Below, one piece after another: positions 9,615 through 43,165 of a stretch of DNA of 64,000 bases (the first letter of the stretch is position 1; every line of letters starts with the position of its first letter). The notes beneath the pieces were generated by a model, which saw only the letters and a list, made by a program, of their open reading frames with translations, was not told where the DNA came from and did not search any database. Source of the DNA: a virus (lineage: Duplodnaviria; Heunggongvirae; Uroviricota; Caudoviricetes); IMG/VR virus record IMGVR_UViG_2908567220_000002, positions 1 to 64,000 of that record; one strand, written 5' to 3'. The position numbers and the translations under genes were made by a program.

Positions 9615-10196
9615 TCACACCGTCCCCGTGGTTGCCTGACTTGTCACCGTGCTGCCGCCGCTCTCCACACCGCTGACCGGGTGGGTGTGGATGTTGTATG
9701 CCTCCCGCAGCGCCTTCAGCGTGGTGCTGTTGGTTTCACAGTTGTCCGTGATATCCCCCGTCACCTTCAGCGACGGCGTTTCAAGGGTGACCCCGTCCGT
9801 CGCCGTCACCTTCAGCGTGGTGGCACTGTTCACCGTCACCGGCTGCCCGGAGGCCTCCACCACAATCCCGTCCTCACCCAGACGGACGAACTGCCCCCAC
9901 TGGTTGTAGACCACCACCTCACCGCTGCTCAGACCGTTAATCCGGTATGACTGATGGCCGGACGCCACCACCACCGCGCTGCTGCGGTTACCGGCAAGAC
10001 TCATCACCACCACATCCGTTCCGTCGGGCAGCACCGAGGAAAAACCAAACTGCTGAAGAACCGGCGTGTCGCTGCGTACCTCTGACGGACTCTGCACCTG
10101 CACGGTCTGCACCACACCGCTGTCATCACCCGCCGTCACGCGCCCCACGCTCAGCAGTGACACCAGACGGCGAAAAAGCACCTGTACAGGATTCAT
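9615..10196 (-). CDS. Baseplate assembly/spike protein (Mu gp45-like, gpV-like)
   Basis: 193 aa; position within the Mu-like baseplate cluster. Confidence 0.6.
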   Translation of the reverse strand: MNPVQVLFRRLVSLLSVGRVTAGDDSGVVQTVQVQSPSEVRSDTPVLQQFGFSSVLPDGTDVVVMSLAGNRSSAVVVASGHQSYRINGLSSGEVVVYNQWGQFVRLGEDGIVVEASGQPVTVNSATTLKVTATDGVTLETPSLKVTGDITDNCETNSTTLKALREAYNIHTHPVSGVESGGSTVTSQATTGTV

Positions 10197-11281
10197 GACG
10201 ACACATCCCTTCCGGCCACGCCGGAATAAAAACGGTACGGCTGCACGCTGAACGCCTCCGGCGGCATCAGGACCAGCGATGCCGTGGTCCCCGTCTCATC
10301 GTCACGGCTGAACGTCACCTCAGAGACCAGCCAGTTCAGACTGTTCGCCCCCAGTGCCGGTATGCTCACCGGCACAAAGGTGTTGGGCTGCCACAGCGTT
10401 CCCGCACTGTCACGCCAGCTGTCCACCGTGACGTTCACTGCCATGGAACGCCCGTAGCGCCGGTTCATTTCCCAGTTCACCGCCTGCTGTGCACACCCCG
10501 TCGTCATCAGCGTGCTCTCCACTATCGTCACGTGACGACGGGTGCGCATACCGGCGGCTTCCGGGTCACGGGCCGTCGCCAGCAGCACGCTGTCATAACC
10601 GGATGCCGGTGACAGCTCGCTGAGGCTGTTCACCGACACCGACAGGCCGGTGTATTCCGAAAACCGTTCATTCATGCTTCGTGTGTACTCCGCCTTCTGC
10701 AGGTTCACCCCCTGCGTCACCCCGCTGGCTGCCGACGCCGTTCCTGCCCGCGTCAGGAACAGGCTGCCATCCGGCAGGTCGTAATACAGCAGCCCCTCAT
10801 ACCGGCAGATGCGGTCGATGATTTGCTGCGACGACTCCCCCCAGTTGATGACAAAATCCGGCACCGTGGTGAAACTGTCGATGTCTGTCGTCACCGTGAT
10901 GCCGTACACCGACGCCAGTTTTCTGATGATGGCCAGCGCATCGCCGCCCTTTATCATGTTGTTCTCCCACCAGGCGGCGCAGTCCACAAGGTCCTGGCAC
11001 ATTCCCCTGCCCGTCACCCGGATATCATGCGACTGCGGCGTCAGGGTGTTCACCCACTGGTCGACATAGCCGGTCATCACCCGGTCATCACCAATGGATA
11101 TCGTGCAGTTGCTCCCCGGCGGGGCCAGCTGAAAGCCCTCCTGCGGATACCAGTCCGTCAGCGAAAGCTCAAAATCCGACGGCAGGCGCTCAATACCCCG
11201 CGTCACCCGGATATGGCTCCATCCCGACATGACGGTGTTGTTCACCTTCAGCGTCAGGGTGTCATCTGTGGTTGTACTCAT
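10193..11281 (-). CDS. Tail/baseplate hub protein (Mu gp44-like, P2 gpD-like)
   Basis: 362 aa; follows the DNA-circulation-like gene as in Mu. Confidence 0.6.
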   Translation of the reverse strand: MSTTTDDTLTLKVNNTVMSGWSHIRVTRGIERLPSDFELSLTDWYPQEGFQLAPPGSNCTISIGDDRVMTGYVDQWVNTLTPQSHDIRVTGRGMCQDLVDCAAWWENNMIKGGDALAIIRKLASVYGITVTTDIDSFTTVPDFVINWGESSQQIIDRICRYEGLLYYDLPDGSLFLTRAGTASAASGVTQGVNLQKAEYTRSMNERFSEYTGLSVSVNSLSELSPASGYDSVLLATARDPEAAGMRTRRHVTIVESTLMTTGCAQQAVNWEMNRRYGRSMAVNVTVDSWRDSAGTLWQPNTFVPVSIPALGANSLNWLVSEVTFSRDDETGTTASLVLMPPEAFSVQPYRFYSGVAGRDVSS

Positions 11282-39907: not shown

Positions 39908-40388
39908 TGGTTGCCTCCTTCACAAAAATAATCCAATGTGTTTTATCGTTCTTGCCGGTGCGCTGGCTGATGATTGGTTTCGCGTCGGTTAGTGCCAATA
40001 TCTGGCGGACAGGCACTTGCGTTTCATTCCATTTAAAAATCAGAATGCCGTGTGGCCACAACACACGAAAGGCTTCTTTAAATCCCTGCCTCAAATCATC
40101 ACGCCAGGTATCTTTATTCAGCCGCCCATATTTCTTTCCCATCCAGGCGTTATCACCAACACGCTCAAGATGCGGAGGGTCGAATACAACAACCGGAAAC
40201 GATGCGTCTGCAAATGGTAATGCACGAAAATCTGCTATCAGGTCAGGGCTAATTATCAGTCGTCGTCCATCACATAATGTGTGCTCTTCCTTTCTGATAT
40301 CGCTAAATATCGCCCGGTCGTCATTCTTATCGAACCAGAACATGCGGCTGCCACAGCACATATCAAGAATGGTTGCCGGTGCACTCAC
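39894..40388 (-). CDS. Small DNA methyltransferase (DPPH motif; N6-adenine or N4-cytosine type)
   Basis: 164 aa; motif I-like ILDMCCGS and catalytic VVFDPPH. Confidence 0.6.
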   Translation of the reverse strand: MSAPATILDMCCGSRMFWFDKNDDRAIFSDIRKEEHTLCDGRRLIISPDLIADFRALPFADASFPVVVFDPPHLERVGDNAWMGKKYGRLNKDTWRDDLRQGFKEAFRVLWPHGILIFKWNETQVPVRQILALTDAKPIISQRTGKNDKTHWIIFVKEATSEQD

Positions 40389-40807
40389 TGCGCTACCTCC
40401 TGAAAATTACCCTGATAAAACGACAATATGCGCTGCATAACTTCGCTCTTCCGGCACTCACAGCAAATTATATTTTGGTGCCTGTCATAACGACGTATTT
40501 CTCCGTCTGGTAATGACCAGATAAGATCCGGATCAGCCACAGATGCTTTCTTCACTTTCGCCCTCGAGAGTTTTTTGCGGGCGTTTTGCCAGTCCTTACG
40601 CGCCTGCTCAGACGGGAATAACCCGTAACCAGAGTTGTATACATCGCCGCTGGCAACCAGCTCTCTTGCGAGAACGCTCATCAGATATCTTGTCGCACCT
40701 GTCTTGACTTCCAGTTGCCGTAACGTCTCACGCCCACTCTGGCGTACGAGTTCAACAACCTGTCCTTTAATTTTTTCCCGCTCTTCTTGTGTAAAAACTT
40801 TTGCCAC
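40385..40807 (-). CDS. Hypothetical phage protein downstream of the replication gene
   Basis: 140-aa ORF; occupies the position where a helicase loader would normally be. Confidence 0.4.
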   Translation of the reverse strand: MAKVFTQEEREKIKGQVVELVRQSGRETLRQLEVKTGATRYLMSVLARELVASGDVYNSGYGLFPSEQARKDWQNARKKLSRAKVKKASVADPDLIWSLPDGEIRRYDRHQNIICCECRKSEVMQRILSFYQGNFQEVAQ

Positions 40808-40847: not shown

Positions 40848-41924
40848 TTACCCCCTGAAGCCCGGCGGAATTTCGTTATCCGGTTCAGAAATATGATTCA
40901 CACAACGCTGGTTGTTCGTGCCGCTTACCGGGAGCAACCAGGGGTTCTCAAAATTCCGGTCCGGTCCAAAAAACGTCGTCGCTCGCTGAACAAATTCCGT
41001 TCCCGTTTTCCCGGTAGCCGCCAAGTATCTTGCGTAACGCCTCACGCCATCCAGCATGGCCTCTGGTGGCACCCCCTCGCGTAATCTGGCCTTCCAGGCA
41101 CTGAAAGCGGATTTCTTCGGGTTTGCCCCAGCACGCAACGGGTACTCCCGCCAGACCTGTTCGAACACATCCGGATAATCCACTCGTCCCACAGACTGCC
41201 CGGTGTTTTCCGGGACTACCCGATCGGCTTCCCGCTGAATGGCGGAATCGGCTTCGGGCTGCTGCAGTTGGTGTGATTGCTCCGGCCTTGCGGTCATCAC
41301 CTGCTGCACAGCGCCCGAATCGGCTTTCAGCGCATACGCTGAATCGGCTTCCGGTGTCGTGCCTGCTAGCTGACCAAGATTGACGGTCTGAACATCCCCT
41401 GCCTGGTTCGTGGCGTTTTTTACGCCATGGACCATAGTGTTTTGATCTTCTTGATCTGTATCTTTATCTGTATCTTTATCTGTCGTGACTCGTCGTGACA
41501 TGTGCGTGACATTTCGTGACGCGCCGTGACAATCGCCATTTTGTTCCCGCTTTCTTTCCCTCTCTCGCTGCGCCCTCTTGCGCTCTGCCGGAGATTTTGC
41601 GGTTTGCGAAATATTGCCGTTGTCCTCTTTAAGCACCTGGCGTTTTTCCCATCCAGTGATTAAATCACCATCAAGTACCCGCCCCTGCATCGTCTGCAAA
41701 ATTGAATCAATTACCTCTTCTGTCACGTCGAGCGCACTTGCCAAATCTTCTGTCGTGACATCAATGTGACCTCGCGTGACATTTCGTGACGCGCTCACCA
41801 GGAGGTGGATATACACTGCCATCACTGTTGCAATTGGCTGCCCTGACACCCTGGCAATTGTTCGCCACTTAGGGTCATTTGGCATGTCATGCCATAATCT
41901 GAGCCAGGCGTTAGCCATACTCAC
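40848..41924 (-). CDS. Replication initiation protein (lambda O-like functional analogue) containing the probable origin iterons
   Basis: 358 aa downstream of cro/cII-like genes; two CGTGAC iteron clusters inside the coding sequence. Confidence 0.55.
   Translation of the reverse strand: MSMANAWLRLWHDMPNDPKWRTIARVSGQPIATVMAVYIHLLVSASRNVTRGHIDVTTEDLASALDVTEEVIDSILQTMQGRVLDGDLITGWEKRQVLKEDNGNISQTAKSPAERKRAQRERERKREQNGDCHGASRNVTHMSRRVTTDKDTDKDTDQEDQNTMVHGVKNATNQAGDVQTVNLGQLAGTTPEADSAYALKADSGAVQQVMTARPEQSHQLQQPEADSAIQREADRVVPENTGQSVGRVDYPDVFEQVWREYPLRAGANPKKSAFSAWKARLREGVPPEAMLDGVRRYARYLAATGKTGTEFVQRATTFFGPDRNFENPWLLPVSGTNNQRCVNHISEPDNEIPPGFRG
41453..41790. repeat. Putative replication origin: two clusters of CGTGAC(A) iterons plus TATCTTTATCTG direct repeats
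   Basis: CGTGAC at 41484, 41494, 41505, 41515, 41525 (about 10-bp spacing); second cluster at 41722-41790; 12-bp unit twice at 41453-41482. Confidence 0.55.
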
Positions 41925-41989
41925 CTCTTCTGATACCGAATCTTTTTACTCACGAGTTGCCGGAAGCGATTCGATATGGCTATTGTCAG

Positions 41990-42415
41990 TCAATGTACTG
42001 CCACAGCATTTCCTGCCGGGCCACCACGGTTCATCTGATTGAAACCGGCGATTGCCACTGCGACAAAATCATCAGCGTCTCTCACCAGTCGCTCCCGCGT
42101 CTCCACCAGCTCCCGAAAATAAGCTGAACTGTGGCTGCGCATTCGGGCCACCAGCAGAGGTGGCATTGCTTTTTCGATAGCTGGTAACAACGCCTGAATT
42201 TTTTTAACCGCATCAGGGGTGTCTTTCTCCACCCAGCGGAAAATTTTCTGAGTATTGCGAGCCAGGGCTTCCGGATGGCTGTCGTCATACAGTTCCGGGA
42301 ACGTCATTCCCAGCTCGAAATACGCTTTGGTAATTTTCGCAGCCGGTACTTTTTCGCCGTCCGGATGCGCCCAGGCATTCATCGCCATGCGGATGTGTTC
42401 ATGCTTGATTTTCAT
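41990..42415 (-). CDS. YdaT-like protein (CII position)
   Basis: 141 aa immediately downstream of the cro-like gene, mirroring ydaS-ydaT in Rac. Confidence 0.45.
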   Translation of the reverse strand: MKIKHEHIRMAMNAWAHPDGEKVPAAKITKAYFELGMTFPELYDDSHPEALARNTQKIFRWVEKDTPDAVKKIQALLPAIEKAMPPLLVARMRSHSSAYFRELVETRERLVRDADDFVAVAIAGFNQMNRGGPAGNAVAVH

Positions 42416-42666
42416 GAATCAACTCCCATCAGCTTTTTCGTAGTAGTTTTATTCCTGCCAATAGTTAAAATTGCATCGGCAGAAAATAATCCGTTTGATG
42501 CAAGAGCGATTTTTTCAGCGTAATTTGTTTCGCCGGTATATTCTGTGCGAGGCAATTTTCCGTTATCCATCCATTTATAGATTGCTCTTTGGCTGACACC
42601 ACAAACGTCGGCCACAACAGCAACGCGAACAGTTTTGATTACATCTTCAAGTGTTTTCTGGTTCAT
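42412..42666 (-). CDS. Cro-like HTH regulator (YdaS-like)
   Basis: ORF 42412-42738; probable start MNQKTLED at 42666; HTH segment VSQRAIYKWMDNG; divergent from the repressor gene. Confidence 0.6.
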   Translation of the reverse strand: MNQKTLEDVIKTVRVAVVADVCGVSQRAIYKWMDNGKLPRTEYTGETNYAEKIALASNGLFSADAILTIGRNKTTTKKLMGVDS

Positions 42667-42745
42667 ATCACCCTCACAATGTGAACTTTGAGTACATGCT
42701 ATAACAGAACTGACAGTACATTCAAGAGCGAATATCATTGAACTT

Positions 42746-43165
42746 ATGGTTCATGAAGATAAAGCGCGTAAAGAGTTCGCCAGTAGGCTTGCGCTAGCCT
42801 GTGAAAACGCTGGTTATGAACAACATGGAAGGCAGGCAGAAATTGCCCGTCGAATGAAATTAACACCAAAAGCGGTTAGCAAATGGTTTAATGGCGAAAC
42901 AATTCCTCGCCGGGAGAAATTAAGGGAATTAGCAACACTAATAGGAACAACACCAACCTATCTTTTGGGAGAGGATACAGAAGAAAGTGGACAGGTACGT
43001 TTCTATCAGGAGTTAAATCCAAGACAAAAAATCATCATTGACCTTCTGGACGAGCTCCCTGACAGTGAGACAGATGAACTTTTAAAAACTCTTGAAGAGA
43101 AAAAACAGAAGTACAATGCAATTTACGAAGAGTTAGCACGAAAGAAAAAACAAAAAGCCTCTTAA
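42746..43165 (+). CDS. Prophage repressor, HTH-XRE type without peptidase domain (DicA/RacR-like)
   Basis: 139 aa; HTH segment QAEIARRMKLTPKAVSKWFNG; divergent from the cro-like gene; followed by ydfA/ydfB-like ORFs as in Qin. Confidence 0.65.
   Translation: MVHEDKARKEFASRLALACENAGYEQHGRQAEIARRMKLTPKAVSKWFNGETIPRREKLRELATLIGTTPTYLLGEDTEESGQVRFYQELNPRQKIIIDLLDELPDSETDELLKTLEEKKQKYNAIYEELARKKKQKAS

Follow-up and report, generated by a model that had tools for sequence, protein, structure and literature searches.

The locus raises the question of whether a phage replication gene can hold the origin at which its own product acts. The first-pass annotation had proposed a probable origin inside an 'O-like' gene, marked by two clusters of the hexamer CGTGAC, and we followed this up over the whole 64,000-nucleotide stretch of viral DNA (the window). 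The gene in question (Table 1) has its ATG at 41918 with AAGAGGTGA directly before it; in the ORF list it begins two codons upstream, at the GTG at 41924, which gives a 358-aa ORF. Its DNA is 97% identical in Escherichia phages Tritos and Evi, and its product matches PHROG 3729, 'replication initiation protein', at E 1e-256 and the PHROG 'replisome organizer' families at E 4e-6 and 2e-4. A Pfam search with the 358-aa ORF at E ≤ 0.01 returned no family, and the lambda O family Phage_rep_O was not matched. PF09681 (Phage_rep_org_N) aligns over profile positions 1-119 of 121 at E 0.008 and 16.6 bits, below its cut-off of 23.3, and a scan of each protein half against Pfam at E ≤ 10 gave PF09681 and unrelated weak matches alone. 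The gene is thus O-like by function and not by homology.

The clusters themselves were largely as first described. All five CGTGAC copies reported at about 10-bp intervals between 41484 and 41530 are exact by direct reading and pattern search (array B; GTCACG on the coding strand), and Tandem Repeats Finder returned a period-10 array of 4.9 copies at 41482-41531. The second cluster, at 41722-41790, comprises three exact copies, one TGTGAC and one inverted copy. Its direct copies form array A, and the inverted copy, which is found again at gene nt 191 in many homologues, is of uncertain significance. The arrays lie further apart than the 'about 200 bp' first given, at 223 bp end to start, or 260 bp start to start in the gene direction. 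The hexamer occurs 59 times in the window against 36 +/- 6 in shuffled sequence, and nine copies fall within 338 bp where 0.27 are expected (Poisson P = 1.4e-11). A search of both strands of the whole 64 kb for at least three GTGAC copies at 9-12-bp spacing found just arrays A and B, leaving no second origin-like phased array elsewhere in the window. A group of CGTGAC matches at 10135-10570 was rejected as a second array, being unphased and on both strands; the surrounding ORFs appear from their translations to be phage structural genes (baseplate-like).

Table 1. Coordinates of the features of the initiator locus (gene nt, nucleotide position within the initiator gene).
Feature	Coordinates	Strand	Remarks
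Replication initiator gene, 'phage replisome organizer' (NCBI name)	40848-41918	-	356 aa
N-terminal domain, predicted winged-helix-like, presumed iteron reader	41628-41918	-	codons 1-97
Iteron array A	41754-41790		gene on - strand; 4 direct GTCAC(G/A) copies on coding strand; exact + strand CGTGAC at 41754-41759, 41775-41780 and 41785-41790, one-mismatch TGTGAC at 41765-41770; spacings 11, 10, 10 bp; gene nt 128, 138, 148, 159
Single inverted hexamer	41722-41727	+	gene nt 191; codons Asp-Val-Thr 64-66
Iteron array B	41484-41530		CGTGAC on + strand, GTCACG on coding (-) strand; 5 exact direct copies at 41484-41489, 41494-41499, 41505-41510, 41515-41520 and 41525-41530; spacings 10, 11, 10, 10 bp; gene nt 388, 398, 408, 419, 429
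A+T-rich segment, candidate DNA unwinding element	41440-41483		contains 12-bp x3 tandem repeat
Inverted repeat	41404-41434		13-bp arms, 5-nt loop; directly past A+T-rich segment in gene direction
Helical C-terminal domain, presumed partner-recruiting module	40929-41183	-	codons 246-330
DnaT-like C-terminal tail	40851-40907	-	last 19 codons, RCVNHISEPDNEIPPGFRG
Downstream gene, DUF977 / 'Ren-like'	40385-40807	-	140 aa; Pfam PF06163 E 2e-31; PHROG 142
cII/YdaT-like gene	41990-42415	-	upstream, same leftward operon
cro-like HTH gene	42412-42738	-	upstream, same leftward operon
cI-like repressor gene	42746-43165	+	divergent

Array B is followed in the gene by an A+T-rich segment. The tandem repeat noted beside the iterons is a 12-bp unit repeated three times (period-12 array TCTTTATCTGTA, 41449-41483, 2.9 copies by Tandem Repeats Finder), which reads (GAT AAA GAT ACA)n on the coding strand and encodes D-K-D-T. 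No 40-mer of the gene is less stable than 41440-41479, which has 25% G+C and stands at the 99.7th percentile of the window. The segment is likely a DNA unwinding element. Among homologous loci the 60 nt beyond array B average 60% A+T compared to 44% for the loci overall, and in 26 hosts of at least 55% G+C the Asp codons of the repeat are GAT in 64 of 67 cases (96%) versus 194 of 502 (39%) elsewhere in the same genes (p = 9e-21). E. coli SJC33 carries an in-frame 18-bp expansion here. A palindrome similar to the inverted repeat of Table 1 was seen by eye in the initiator gene of phiSTEC1589, whose N-terminal half is unrelated. We found no match to the DnaA box TTWTNCACA within 40848-41990, the nearest being at 40788 and 43228, so help from host DnaA cannot be invoked. 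DnaA boxes near iterons are common in plasmid iteron origins and not universal; their absence here is itself neutral.

To place these elements in an evolutionary frame we used initiator homologues from 58 species, with the arrays surveyed over 54 loci. Phased arrays are present at both places in 43 of the 54, at identical gene positions in hosts of 34-63% G+C; array A positions are the same in about 22 homologues, and the place equivalent to array B holds three to five copies. When 16 homologues from hosts of 34-63% G+C were aligned, codons with their third base in a hexamer showed no variation among the sequences in 8 of 11 columns, versus 1 of 34 outside (Fisher p = 6.4e-6). Synonymous positions never vary within the hexamers but are saturated next to them, also in a host of 34% G+C and in hosts of 61-63% G+C, and hexamer starts occupy all three reading frames, coding Cys-His, Ser-Arg or Val-Thr. 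This comparison places the hexamers and the adjacent A+T-rich repeat under DNA-level purifying selection. Selection of this kind shows that something reads the sites, and not that they fire replication.

The motif itself changes in a concerted manner. Distant homologues have GTAACG or CGAACGC in place of GTCACG, always with the same motif in A and B, and the motif class does not track host taxonomy, Enterobacterales members having either GTCACG or GTAACG. The N-terminal domain is 60-70% identical in Pseudomonas, Bordetella, Serratia and others, and is found together with the arrays in Gamma-, Beta- and Alphaproteobacteria, Acidobacteria and a planctomycete. A 21-bp (two-copy) insertion in array B sets the forms from E. 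coli, Salmonella and Citrobacter apart from those of other genera, and five family members (L108, L110, L122, L123 and L138) show no arrays. The module is present in 2078 of 5426 complete E. coli genomes and also in prophages of Pseudomonas, Bordetella, Serratia, Stenotrophomonas, Acidobacteria and others. A plasmid search yielded just prophage copies and two P. aeruginosa circular records of about 50.9 kb, probably phage genomes, and thus no independent sign of plasmid-type replication.

The protein appears to accommodate the arrays where its structure permits. AlphaFold2 predicts the N-terminal domain with pLDDT mostly 86-96 (65 for residues 1-10 and 71 for residues 41-50), folded as helices 2-14, 16-25 and 29-45, a bridging strand residue at about 51, helices 56-63 and 67-77, and a hairpin at 78-88. 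Array A codes for aa 43-56 (A-S-R-N-V-T-R-G-H-I-D-V-T-T), mapping in the predicted structure to the end of helix 29-45 and the loop 46-55, and this loop tolerates 7-aa (21-bp, two-copy) insertions. Array B, encoding C-H-G-A-S-R-N-V-T-H-M-S-R-R-V-T, and the A+T repeat fall in a linker predicted to be disordered (pLDDT < 50), in which residues other than those coded by the array B iterons are not conserved. In the model the arrays sit at structurally permissive positions, loop and linker. A Foldseek search of the full-length model against the PDB gave no match at E ≤ 0.001 and only weak hits to winged-helix regulators, leaving the tie of the N-terminal domain to known origin binders weak.

At the other end of the protein, the last approximately 20 residues, VNHISEPDNEIPPGFRG, match the extreme C-terminus of DnaT (...SEPDxxIPPGFRG). 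The tail hits the PDB DnaT chains 6aep (E 0.003), 2ru8 and 9zbt_D with phmmer and aligns with positions 156-179 of 179 of the NCBIfam DnaT profile; by its sequence, it is a copy of the C-terminal tail of this host primosomal protein. Among initiator homologues the tail is restricted to Enterobacterales members. The initiator of the window has no match to PF17948, the DnaT ssDNA-binding three-helix domain, and no DnaT N-terminal domain, while PF17948 is present in sister initiators. DnaT is a restart factor, and we read the protein of the window as an origin-binding initiator instead. Neither the preprimosome paper (PMC13377028) nor the DnaT-ssDNA paper (PMC4132743) gives a function for DnaT residues 154-179.

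The surroundings of the gene bear on how a helicase might be loaded. Searching the whole 64-kb window by tblastn with the DnaC-like, P-like (from L086 and L105), DnaB-like and primase-helicase proteins of relatives revealed no helicase or loader gene, in agreement with the first-pass annotation, and the profile search it had proposed for the downstream 140-aa protein identified DUF977 / 'Ren-like' and no helicase loader. Its suggestion that the initiation mechanism may differ from that of lambda is reasonable given the missing loader and helicase genes and the DnaT tail on the initiator. Downstream genes vary among relatives (P-like, DnaB, Toprim-DnaB_C, DnaC/IstB, or none), and the sole constant partner of the arrays is the initiator N-terminal domain. 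We rejected the tail as a simple substitute for a missing loader, as L104 and phiSTEC1589 carry both the tail and a DnaC-like gene. Since the initiator gene lies behind the cro- and cII-like genes in one operon, early transcription should cross the arrays.

Overall, we consider that the arrays and the A+T repeat probably form the origin for vegetative replication in a lambdoid (Rac/Tritos-like) prophage of E. coli, lying inside the gene of the phage's own initiator. The origin proposed at first pass gains support from DNA-level selection, co-inheritance with the N-terminal domain and concerted motif change. The locus has the general features of an iteron theta origin, namely helix-phased direct repeats, an initiator encoded in cis and an adjacent A+T-rich candidate unwinding element. 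It is best read, by analogy with lambda and SPP1 oriL, as an iteron origin that the initiator would bind and that includes an unwinding element, a reading we think a good deal likelier than its competitors taken together. The predicted winged-helix-like N-terminal domain would bind the GTCACG hexamers, and one direct repeat per helical turn would align protomers head to tail along a single face of the DNA, with four sites offered by array A and, 260 bp deeper in the gene, five by array B. The resulting nucleoprotein complex, together with supercoiling and early transcription, may then open the (GATAAA/GATACA)n tract at 41440-41483. Host proteins, recruited by the C-terminal domain and the DnaT-like tail, would then load DnaB; the phage itself encodes neither a helicase nor a loader. 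Two arrays 260 bp apart, with the A+T element outside rather than between them, are unlike the textbook layout, and one array could be regulatory.

The likeness to lambda claimed at the outset extends to an origin inside the initiator gene and not to the type of iteron or the two-array layout. In lambda a palindrome follows the A+T-rich region, and here too iterons in the initiator gene are followed by an A+T-rich region and then by the palindrome at 41404-41434. Further shared traits are that an origin-bearing part of the gene codes for a flexible inter-domain segment and that the gene stands in an early operon of the rightward type, after cro- and cII-like genes. The lambda ori is located within O and comprises a high-AT region and a single array of four 18-bp inverted-repeat (palindromic) iterons (PMC6022878). 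In contrast, the repeats here are direct, with a 6-bp core every 10-11 bp in arrays of four and five, one of them within the coding region of the folded N-terminal domain; the initiator lacks homology to lambda O, and a P gene is missing.

SPP1 oriL offers a second comparison, where repeats bound by G38P, an organizer without an AAA+ domain, and an adjacent unwinding element are embedded in gene 38 and suffice for replication in vitro (PMC5737612). The window likewise has repeats and an adjacent A+T-rich candidate unwinding element in the organizer's own gene, and an initiator without an AAA+ domain. However, the homology is remote, below the Pfam cut-off; SPP1 has its own loader G39P and helicase G40P, neither of which is in the window; and a further SPP1 binding region, oriR, lies at another place in that phage's genome, whereas here both arrays are in the gene with no third in the window. 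PhiR42_1 and phiSTEC1589 share the genomic slot (cro - cII - initiator - DUF977) and, by eye, the same DnaT-like tail, but their N-terminal domains are unrelated and their motifs differ. PhiR42_1, whose initiator is unrelated, has linker iterons at 23-bp spacing (CATTTTGACC-type) and, after them, an A+T-rich tandem repeat (12 bp x3). In phiSTEC1589 two short arrays 229 nt apart, inverted and with AAGGGGCT x2, occupy the N-terminal domain coding region and the linker, and the phage differs from that of the window in encoding a DnaC/DnaI-like loader. Literature searches on the motif, the initiator family and the named phages yielded nothing relevant. The element would thus be of a familiar kind in a very common family, with its origin undescribed in the papers searched.

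Sites bound by the initiator could also serve chiefly for control, through autorepression, a transcription roadblock or handcuffing, with replication starting elsewhere or with array B and the A+T repeat as the origin and array A as a regulatory element. In P1 and other iteron replicons origin and control iterons are separate sets, and here two separate arrays share one motif, the A+T-rich element abuts just one of them, and the initiator gene that contains both is transcribed behind cro/cII-like genes. We nevertheless regard this as unlikely, as the conserved succession of array B, A+T repeat and, in E. coli, palindrome is a classical origin layout, and the window has no other phased array to act as the real origin; the version in which the roles are split is compatible with an origin in the initiator gene rather than opposed to it. 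We hold it less likely still that the hexamers are read by another protein, from host or phage, for packaging, partition or nucleoid organisation. Plasmid centromeres such as R1 parC do contain arrays of approximately 11-bp repeats, and the hexamer includes GTGA, which resembles a CRP half-site. Yet the arrays occur with the same N-terminal domain across phyla while neighbouring genes vary, both are always within the initiator gene, and the switch of motif class within host groups such as the Enterobacterales (GTCACG or GTAACG) argues against a host factor.

The alternative that the first-pass annotation had itself named as its refutation, in which the repeats only echo a recurring peptide (SRNVT / VTT) or codon usage and have no function at the DNA level, has the least to recommend it and we give it almost no weight. 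ASRNVT does occur twice in the protein (aa 43-48 and 133-138), but the 10-11-bp period shifts the frame between hexamers, which then encode CH, SR or VT, the frozen synonymous positions stand among saturated neighbours, and array B falls in a disordered linker whose remaining residues are unconserved. We rejected the peptide explanation on reading frames and synonymous sites. There is also a slim chance, slightly below that of another reader, that binding site and reader are partly the same DNA, with array A encoding the end of a helix and the loop/strand of the N-terminal domain. One subclade has an extra hexamer copy in the codons that open the putative recognition helix, reading CGT AAC GTT in L103 and L104 versus CGT CAC GTT in L106, an Asn/His difference. 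If residues encoded by the iterons contact the hexamer, a mutation of the site would alter the reader too, a route to the concerted switches between GTCACG, GTAACG and CGAACGC.

For an origin within the initiator gene, the arrangement of two one-turn-spaced hexamer arrays at fixed gene positions, followed by (GATAMA)n, would provide a signature for annotating origins in thousands of prophages, and the motif classes predict at least three incompatibility or specificity classes. Based on the frozen synonymous sites, the two-iteron insertions and the placement of sites in loop and linker, the initiator family represents a clean natural case of a coding sequence constrained by an overlapping DNA code. 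Finally, the DnaT-like tail on the initiators of phages that have no loader points to a testable recruitment of host machinery.

We confirmed, by reading and pattern search, the two phased CGTGAC clusters (41484-41530 and 41722-41790) that the first-pass annotation had proposed as an origin, and Tandem Repeats Finder recovered the tandem repeat it had noted near them. Along the initiator gene the order is array A (nt 128-164), an end-to-start gap of 223 bp (previously put at about 200), array B (nt 388-434), the A+T-rich repeat and a palindrome. Nine hexamer copies lie within 338 bp, compared with 0.27 expected (P about 1e-11), and runs of at least three copies at 9-12-bp spacing occur only at arrays A and B in the entire 64 kb. 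The 40-mer at 41440-41479 (25% G+C) has the lowest stability in the gene and falls in the top 0.3% of the window. The surrounding genes are a lambdoid/Rac-like early region. The palindrome scores terminator-like on the + strand, antisense to the gene; by eye, a similar one is present in the initiator gene of phiSTEC1589 (locus L002, ~5475-5505), where the shared C-terminal module begins. Seven unphased CGTGAC copies on both strands at 10135-10570 lie within phage structural ORFs, baseplate-like going by translations alone, and we judge these copies to be chance in a G+C-rich stretch. The window thus joins a lambdoid early region to baseplate-like structural genes, the latter read from translations.

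Features of the initiator gene, its embedded repeats and its neighbours
Feature	Position	Strand	Details
Initiator gene, 356 aa	40848-41918	minus	ATG at 41918, AAGAGGTGA just before; GTG two codons upstream in the ORF list
DnaT-like tail, last 19 residues, RCVNHISEPDNEIPPGFRG	40851-40907	minus	nearly copies the very C-terminal end of host DnaT (PDB 6aep, 2ru8, 9zbt_D)
Array A, exact CGTGAC	starts 41754, 41775, 41785	+	one-mismatch TGTGAC at 41765; spacings 11, 10, 10
Single inverted hexamer copy	41722
Array B, exact CGTGAC	starts 41484, 41494, 41505, 41515, 41525	+	spacings 10, 11, 10, 10
Period-10 array	41482-41531		Tandem Repeats Finder
Period-12 A+T-rich array, TCTTTATCTGTA	41449-41483		2.9 copies; Tandem Repeats Finder
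Inverted repeat, TGGTTCGTGGCGT-TTTTT-ACGCCATGGACCA	41404-41434		13-bp arms; adjoins A+T-rich repeat
cI-like repressor gene	42746-43165	+
cro-like HTH gene	42412-42738		divergent from cI-like repressor gene
cII/YdaT-like gene	41990-42415		between cro-like and initiator genes
DUF977 / 'Ren-like' gene, 140 aa	40385-40807		downstream of initiator gene
Methyltransferase gene, then Ead/Ea22-like gene			beyond DUF977 gene

The decisive evidence for reading the element as an iteron origin is comparative. Searching with the N-terminal 174 aa of the initiator returned 1142 protein clusters, and a scan of one genome per species gave 58 loci spanning Gamma-, Beta- and Alphaproteobacteria, Acidobacteria and one planctomycete. 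In about 22 of these loci (34-63% G+C), GTCACG, the hexamer on the coding strand, is found at gene nt ~128, 138, 148, 159 and ~388, 398, 408, 417, matching its positions in the window; among the hosts are Shigella, E. albertii, Aquitalea, Entomomonas, Rahnella, Serratia, Bordetella, Pseudomonas, Gilvimarinus, Acidovorax, Stenotrophomonas and Chromobacterium. When 16 of these genes were aligned by codon, 45 columns combined an invariant amino acid with a degenerate codon. GCG TCA CGN AAT GTC ACG CGN GGT CAC ... GAT GTC ACG is conserved base for base among the 16, and flanking synonymous sites are scrambled. A single codon is used by all 16 sequences in 8 of 11 columns with the third base inside a hexamer versus 1 of 34 others (Fisher p = 6.4e-6), the lone exception outside the hexamers being the GAT of the D-K-D repeat. 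With a period of 10-11 bp, the hexamer copies fall in all three reading frames and encode Cys-His, Ser-Arg or Val-Thr, which rules out that the DNA repeat reflects a peptide repeat. Indels among homologues come in 21-bp units, or two hexamer periods, such as HMSRRVT in array B (E. coli, Salmonella and Citrobacter forms) and TCHGVSL in array A (O157 and E. albertii forms).

In more distant homologues GTCACG is absent, and a different hexamer occupies both places in unchanged phase: GTAACG in Pantoea, Enterobacter hormaechei, Marinobacter and Sphingomonas, and CGAACG(C) in many Betaproteobacteria, Acidobacteria, a Kordiimonas (Alphaproteobacteria) and a Gemmataceae genome, the latter class also with fixed synonymous positions (AAC GCA ACC GAA CGC GGN CGA ACG). 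Phased arrays were present at both places in 43 of 54 loci; the top k-mer of A and B was identical or offset by 1-2 bases in 36, and at least two more (L112 and L129) have overlapping words of one motif in the two arrays. The next gene downstream varies, being lambda-P-like (Aquitalea, Pseudomonas), DnaB (Stenotrophomonas), Toprim-DnaB_C (Serratia), DnaC/IstB-like (Enterobacter) or unrelated. Since the motif always agrees between A and B, its class is independent of host taxonomy and the N-terminal domain is the only constant companion of the arrays, the comparison points to the initiator as the reader of the hexamers.

L108, L110, L122, L123 and L138 have the conserved N-terminal domain and no detectable phased arrays; the middle part differs in L123 (weak MUG113/T5orf172-like match, E 0.004, below cut-off) and L138, and L108 carries the DnaT DNA-binding domain PF17948. 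The N-terminal domain is 69.5% identical in CP137943.1 and CP124671.1, circular P. aeruginosa records of ~50.9 kb filed as plasmids, which probably represent circular genomes of phi1/Marin-type phages. Loci L103, L104 and L106 have an extra hexamer copy at gene nt ~223, where the putative recognition helix starts. It reads CGT AAC GTT (Arg-Asn-Val) in L103 and L104 (GTAACG class) and CGT CAC GTT (Arg-His-Val) in the closely related L106 (GTCACG class), so that the A/C base distinguishing the hexamers is also an Asn/His difference in the presumed reading head. That iteron-encoded residues (loop 44-56 and, in one subclade, the Asn/His with which that helix begins) might help to read the iteron strikes us as a long shot.

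Codon usage shows selection at the DNA level on the A+T-rich repeat too. Over the 60 nt that follow array B, A+T content averages 60%, versus 44% across loci. In 26 hosts with at least 55% G+C (55-67%; homologous loci within L086-L139), Asp is GAT in 64 of 67 cases within 16 codons after array B versus 194 of 502 elsewhere in the same genes (p = 9e-21), and Lys is AAA in 65% versus 41% (p = 6e-4). The near-exclusive use of GAT suggests selection on a specific (GATAMA)n word, not A+T-richness alone; the unit at window 41440-41483 is GATAAA/GATACA. In E. coli SJC33 (L142) the 12-bp repeat has grown by 18 bp in frame (aligned to window 41453-41454), adding six residues to the D-K-D-T stretch and leaving all five array-B hexamers intact.

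Over its entire length the initiator matches PHROG 3729 'replication initiation protein' (E 1e-256); no Pfam family reached E <= 0.01. Against PF09681 (N-terminal replisome-organiser domain), its first 128 residues scored a weak full-length match that stays below cut-off (E 0.008); membership of the Phage_rep_org_N family is weakly supported, and homology did not place the protein in the lambda O family. The earlier label 'O-like' holds in function only. At the DNA level, identity to Escherichia phages Tritos, Evi, 204576 and several vB_Eco phages is 95-97.5%. Of 5426 complete E. coli genomes, 2078 carry the origin-bearing 525 bp, and PGAP annotates the gene there as 'phage replisome organizer'. 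An AlphaFold2 model built with 63 homologues predicts a confident N-terminal domain at aa 1-97 (helices 2-14, 16-25, 29-45; bridging strand residue ~51; helices 56-63, 67-77; hairpin 78-88), which we read as winged-helix-like, then helix 110-126, a disordered linker (~aa 127-245), a confident helical C-terminal domain (246-330) and a disordered tail. In this model array B and the D-K-D-T repeat code for the linker, and array A for the end of helix 29-45 and loop 46-55, the region of lowest confidence in the N-terminal domain (block pLDDT 71). No significant match came from fold searches.

As first noted, no helicase-loader gene was recognised downstream: profile searches identified the 140-aa product as DUF977, and genes resembling DnaB, DnaC, P or a primase-helicase are absent from the whole 64-kb window. 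[quoted passage not shown] Within the initiator family the DnaT-like tail is confined to Enterobacterales members, and it is also found at the end of two unrelated initiators, those of PhiR42_1 and phiSTEC1589. In DnaT, the C-terminal domain docks onto PriA and assembles into filaments on ssDNA, whereas the N-terminal domain may recruit DnaB/DnaC (PMC13377028); no role is given to the tail there or in PMC4132743. We infer that the phage would rely on host DnaB-DnaC, possibly via a host contact common to it and DnaT; of all steps in the model this is the weakest.

Array B and 41440-41483 would form the origin core, since the layout follows the logic of lambda ori, which sits within O with repeats, then an A+T-rich element, and early-operon transcription (PMC6022878), and of SPP1 oriL, within gene 38, where a 356-bp fragment with repeats and a DUE suffices for organizer-dependent replication in vitro (PMC5737612). 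Here too the repeats lie inside the initiator gene, followed by the A+T-rich element and then the palindrome, with early operon transcription throughout. Array A would act as a further loading platform or in control. Direct repeats spaced by one turn imply protomers arranged head-to-tail on one helix face; PhoB/OmpR-type winged-helix domains bind 11-bp direct repeats in this way. It is unlikely that the arrays are control sites only, or that the roles are split, array A serving regulation and array B acting as the origin. We give still less weight to the hexamers serving another binder or function, against which the taxonomic spread, the changing gene neighbours and the switches of motif all speak, and a peptide or codon artefact is barely credible, being contradicted by the reading frames and the synonymous sites.

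Sequence features of two unrelated initiators, found in the same genomic slot of related E. coli phages, support the generality of the in-gene layout. PhiR42_1 has a lambda-style origin (L003 4016-4186), in which five or six CATTTTGACC-type iterons, spaced 23 bp apart, precede three tandem copies of a 12-bp A+T-rich repeat (TATTCTCTGTAG). In phiSTEC1589, whose N-terminal domain is unrelated, two inverted pairs of AAGGGGCT lie 229 nt apart (L002 5553-5575 and 5805-5827), one in the linker, with copies 11 bp apart, and the other in the N-terminal coding region. Compared with textbook origins, the present one has direct repeats with a 6-bp core, one per turn, in two arrays about 260 bp apart, one of them inside the coding sequence of a folded domain; its family has at least three motif classes across phyla, and the phage lacks a loader but has a DnaT tail. 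No description of this origin turned up in the literature searched, mostly outside subscription journals. We consider the element to be, very probably, an iteron origin in function, embedded in its own initiator gene, a kind already known. This reading is well supported and the element very widespread, though mechanistically expected.
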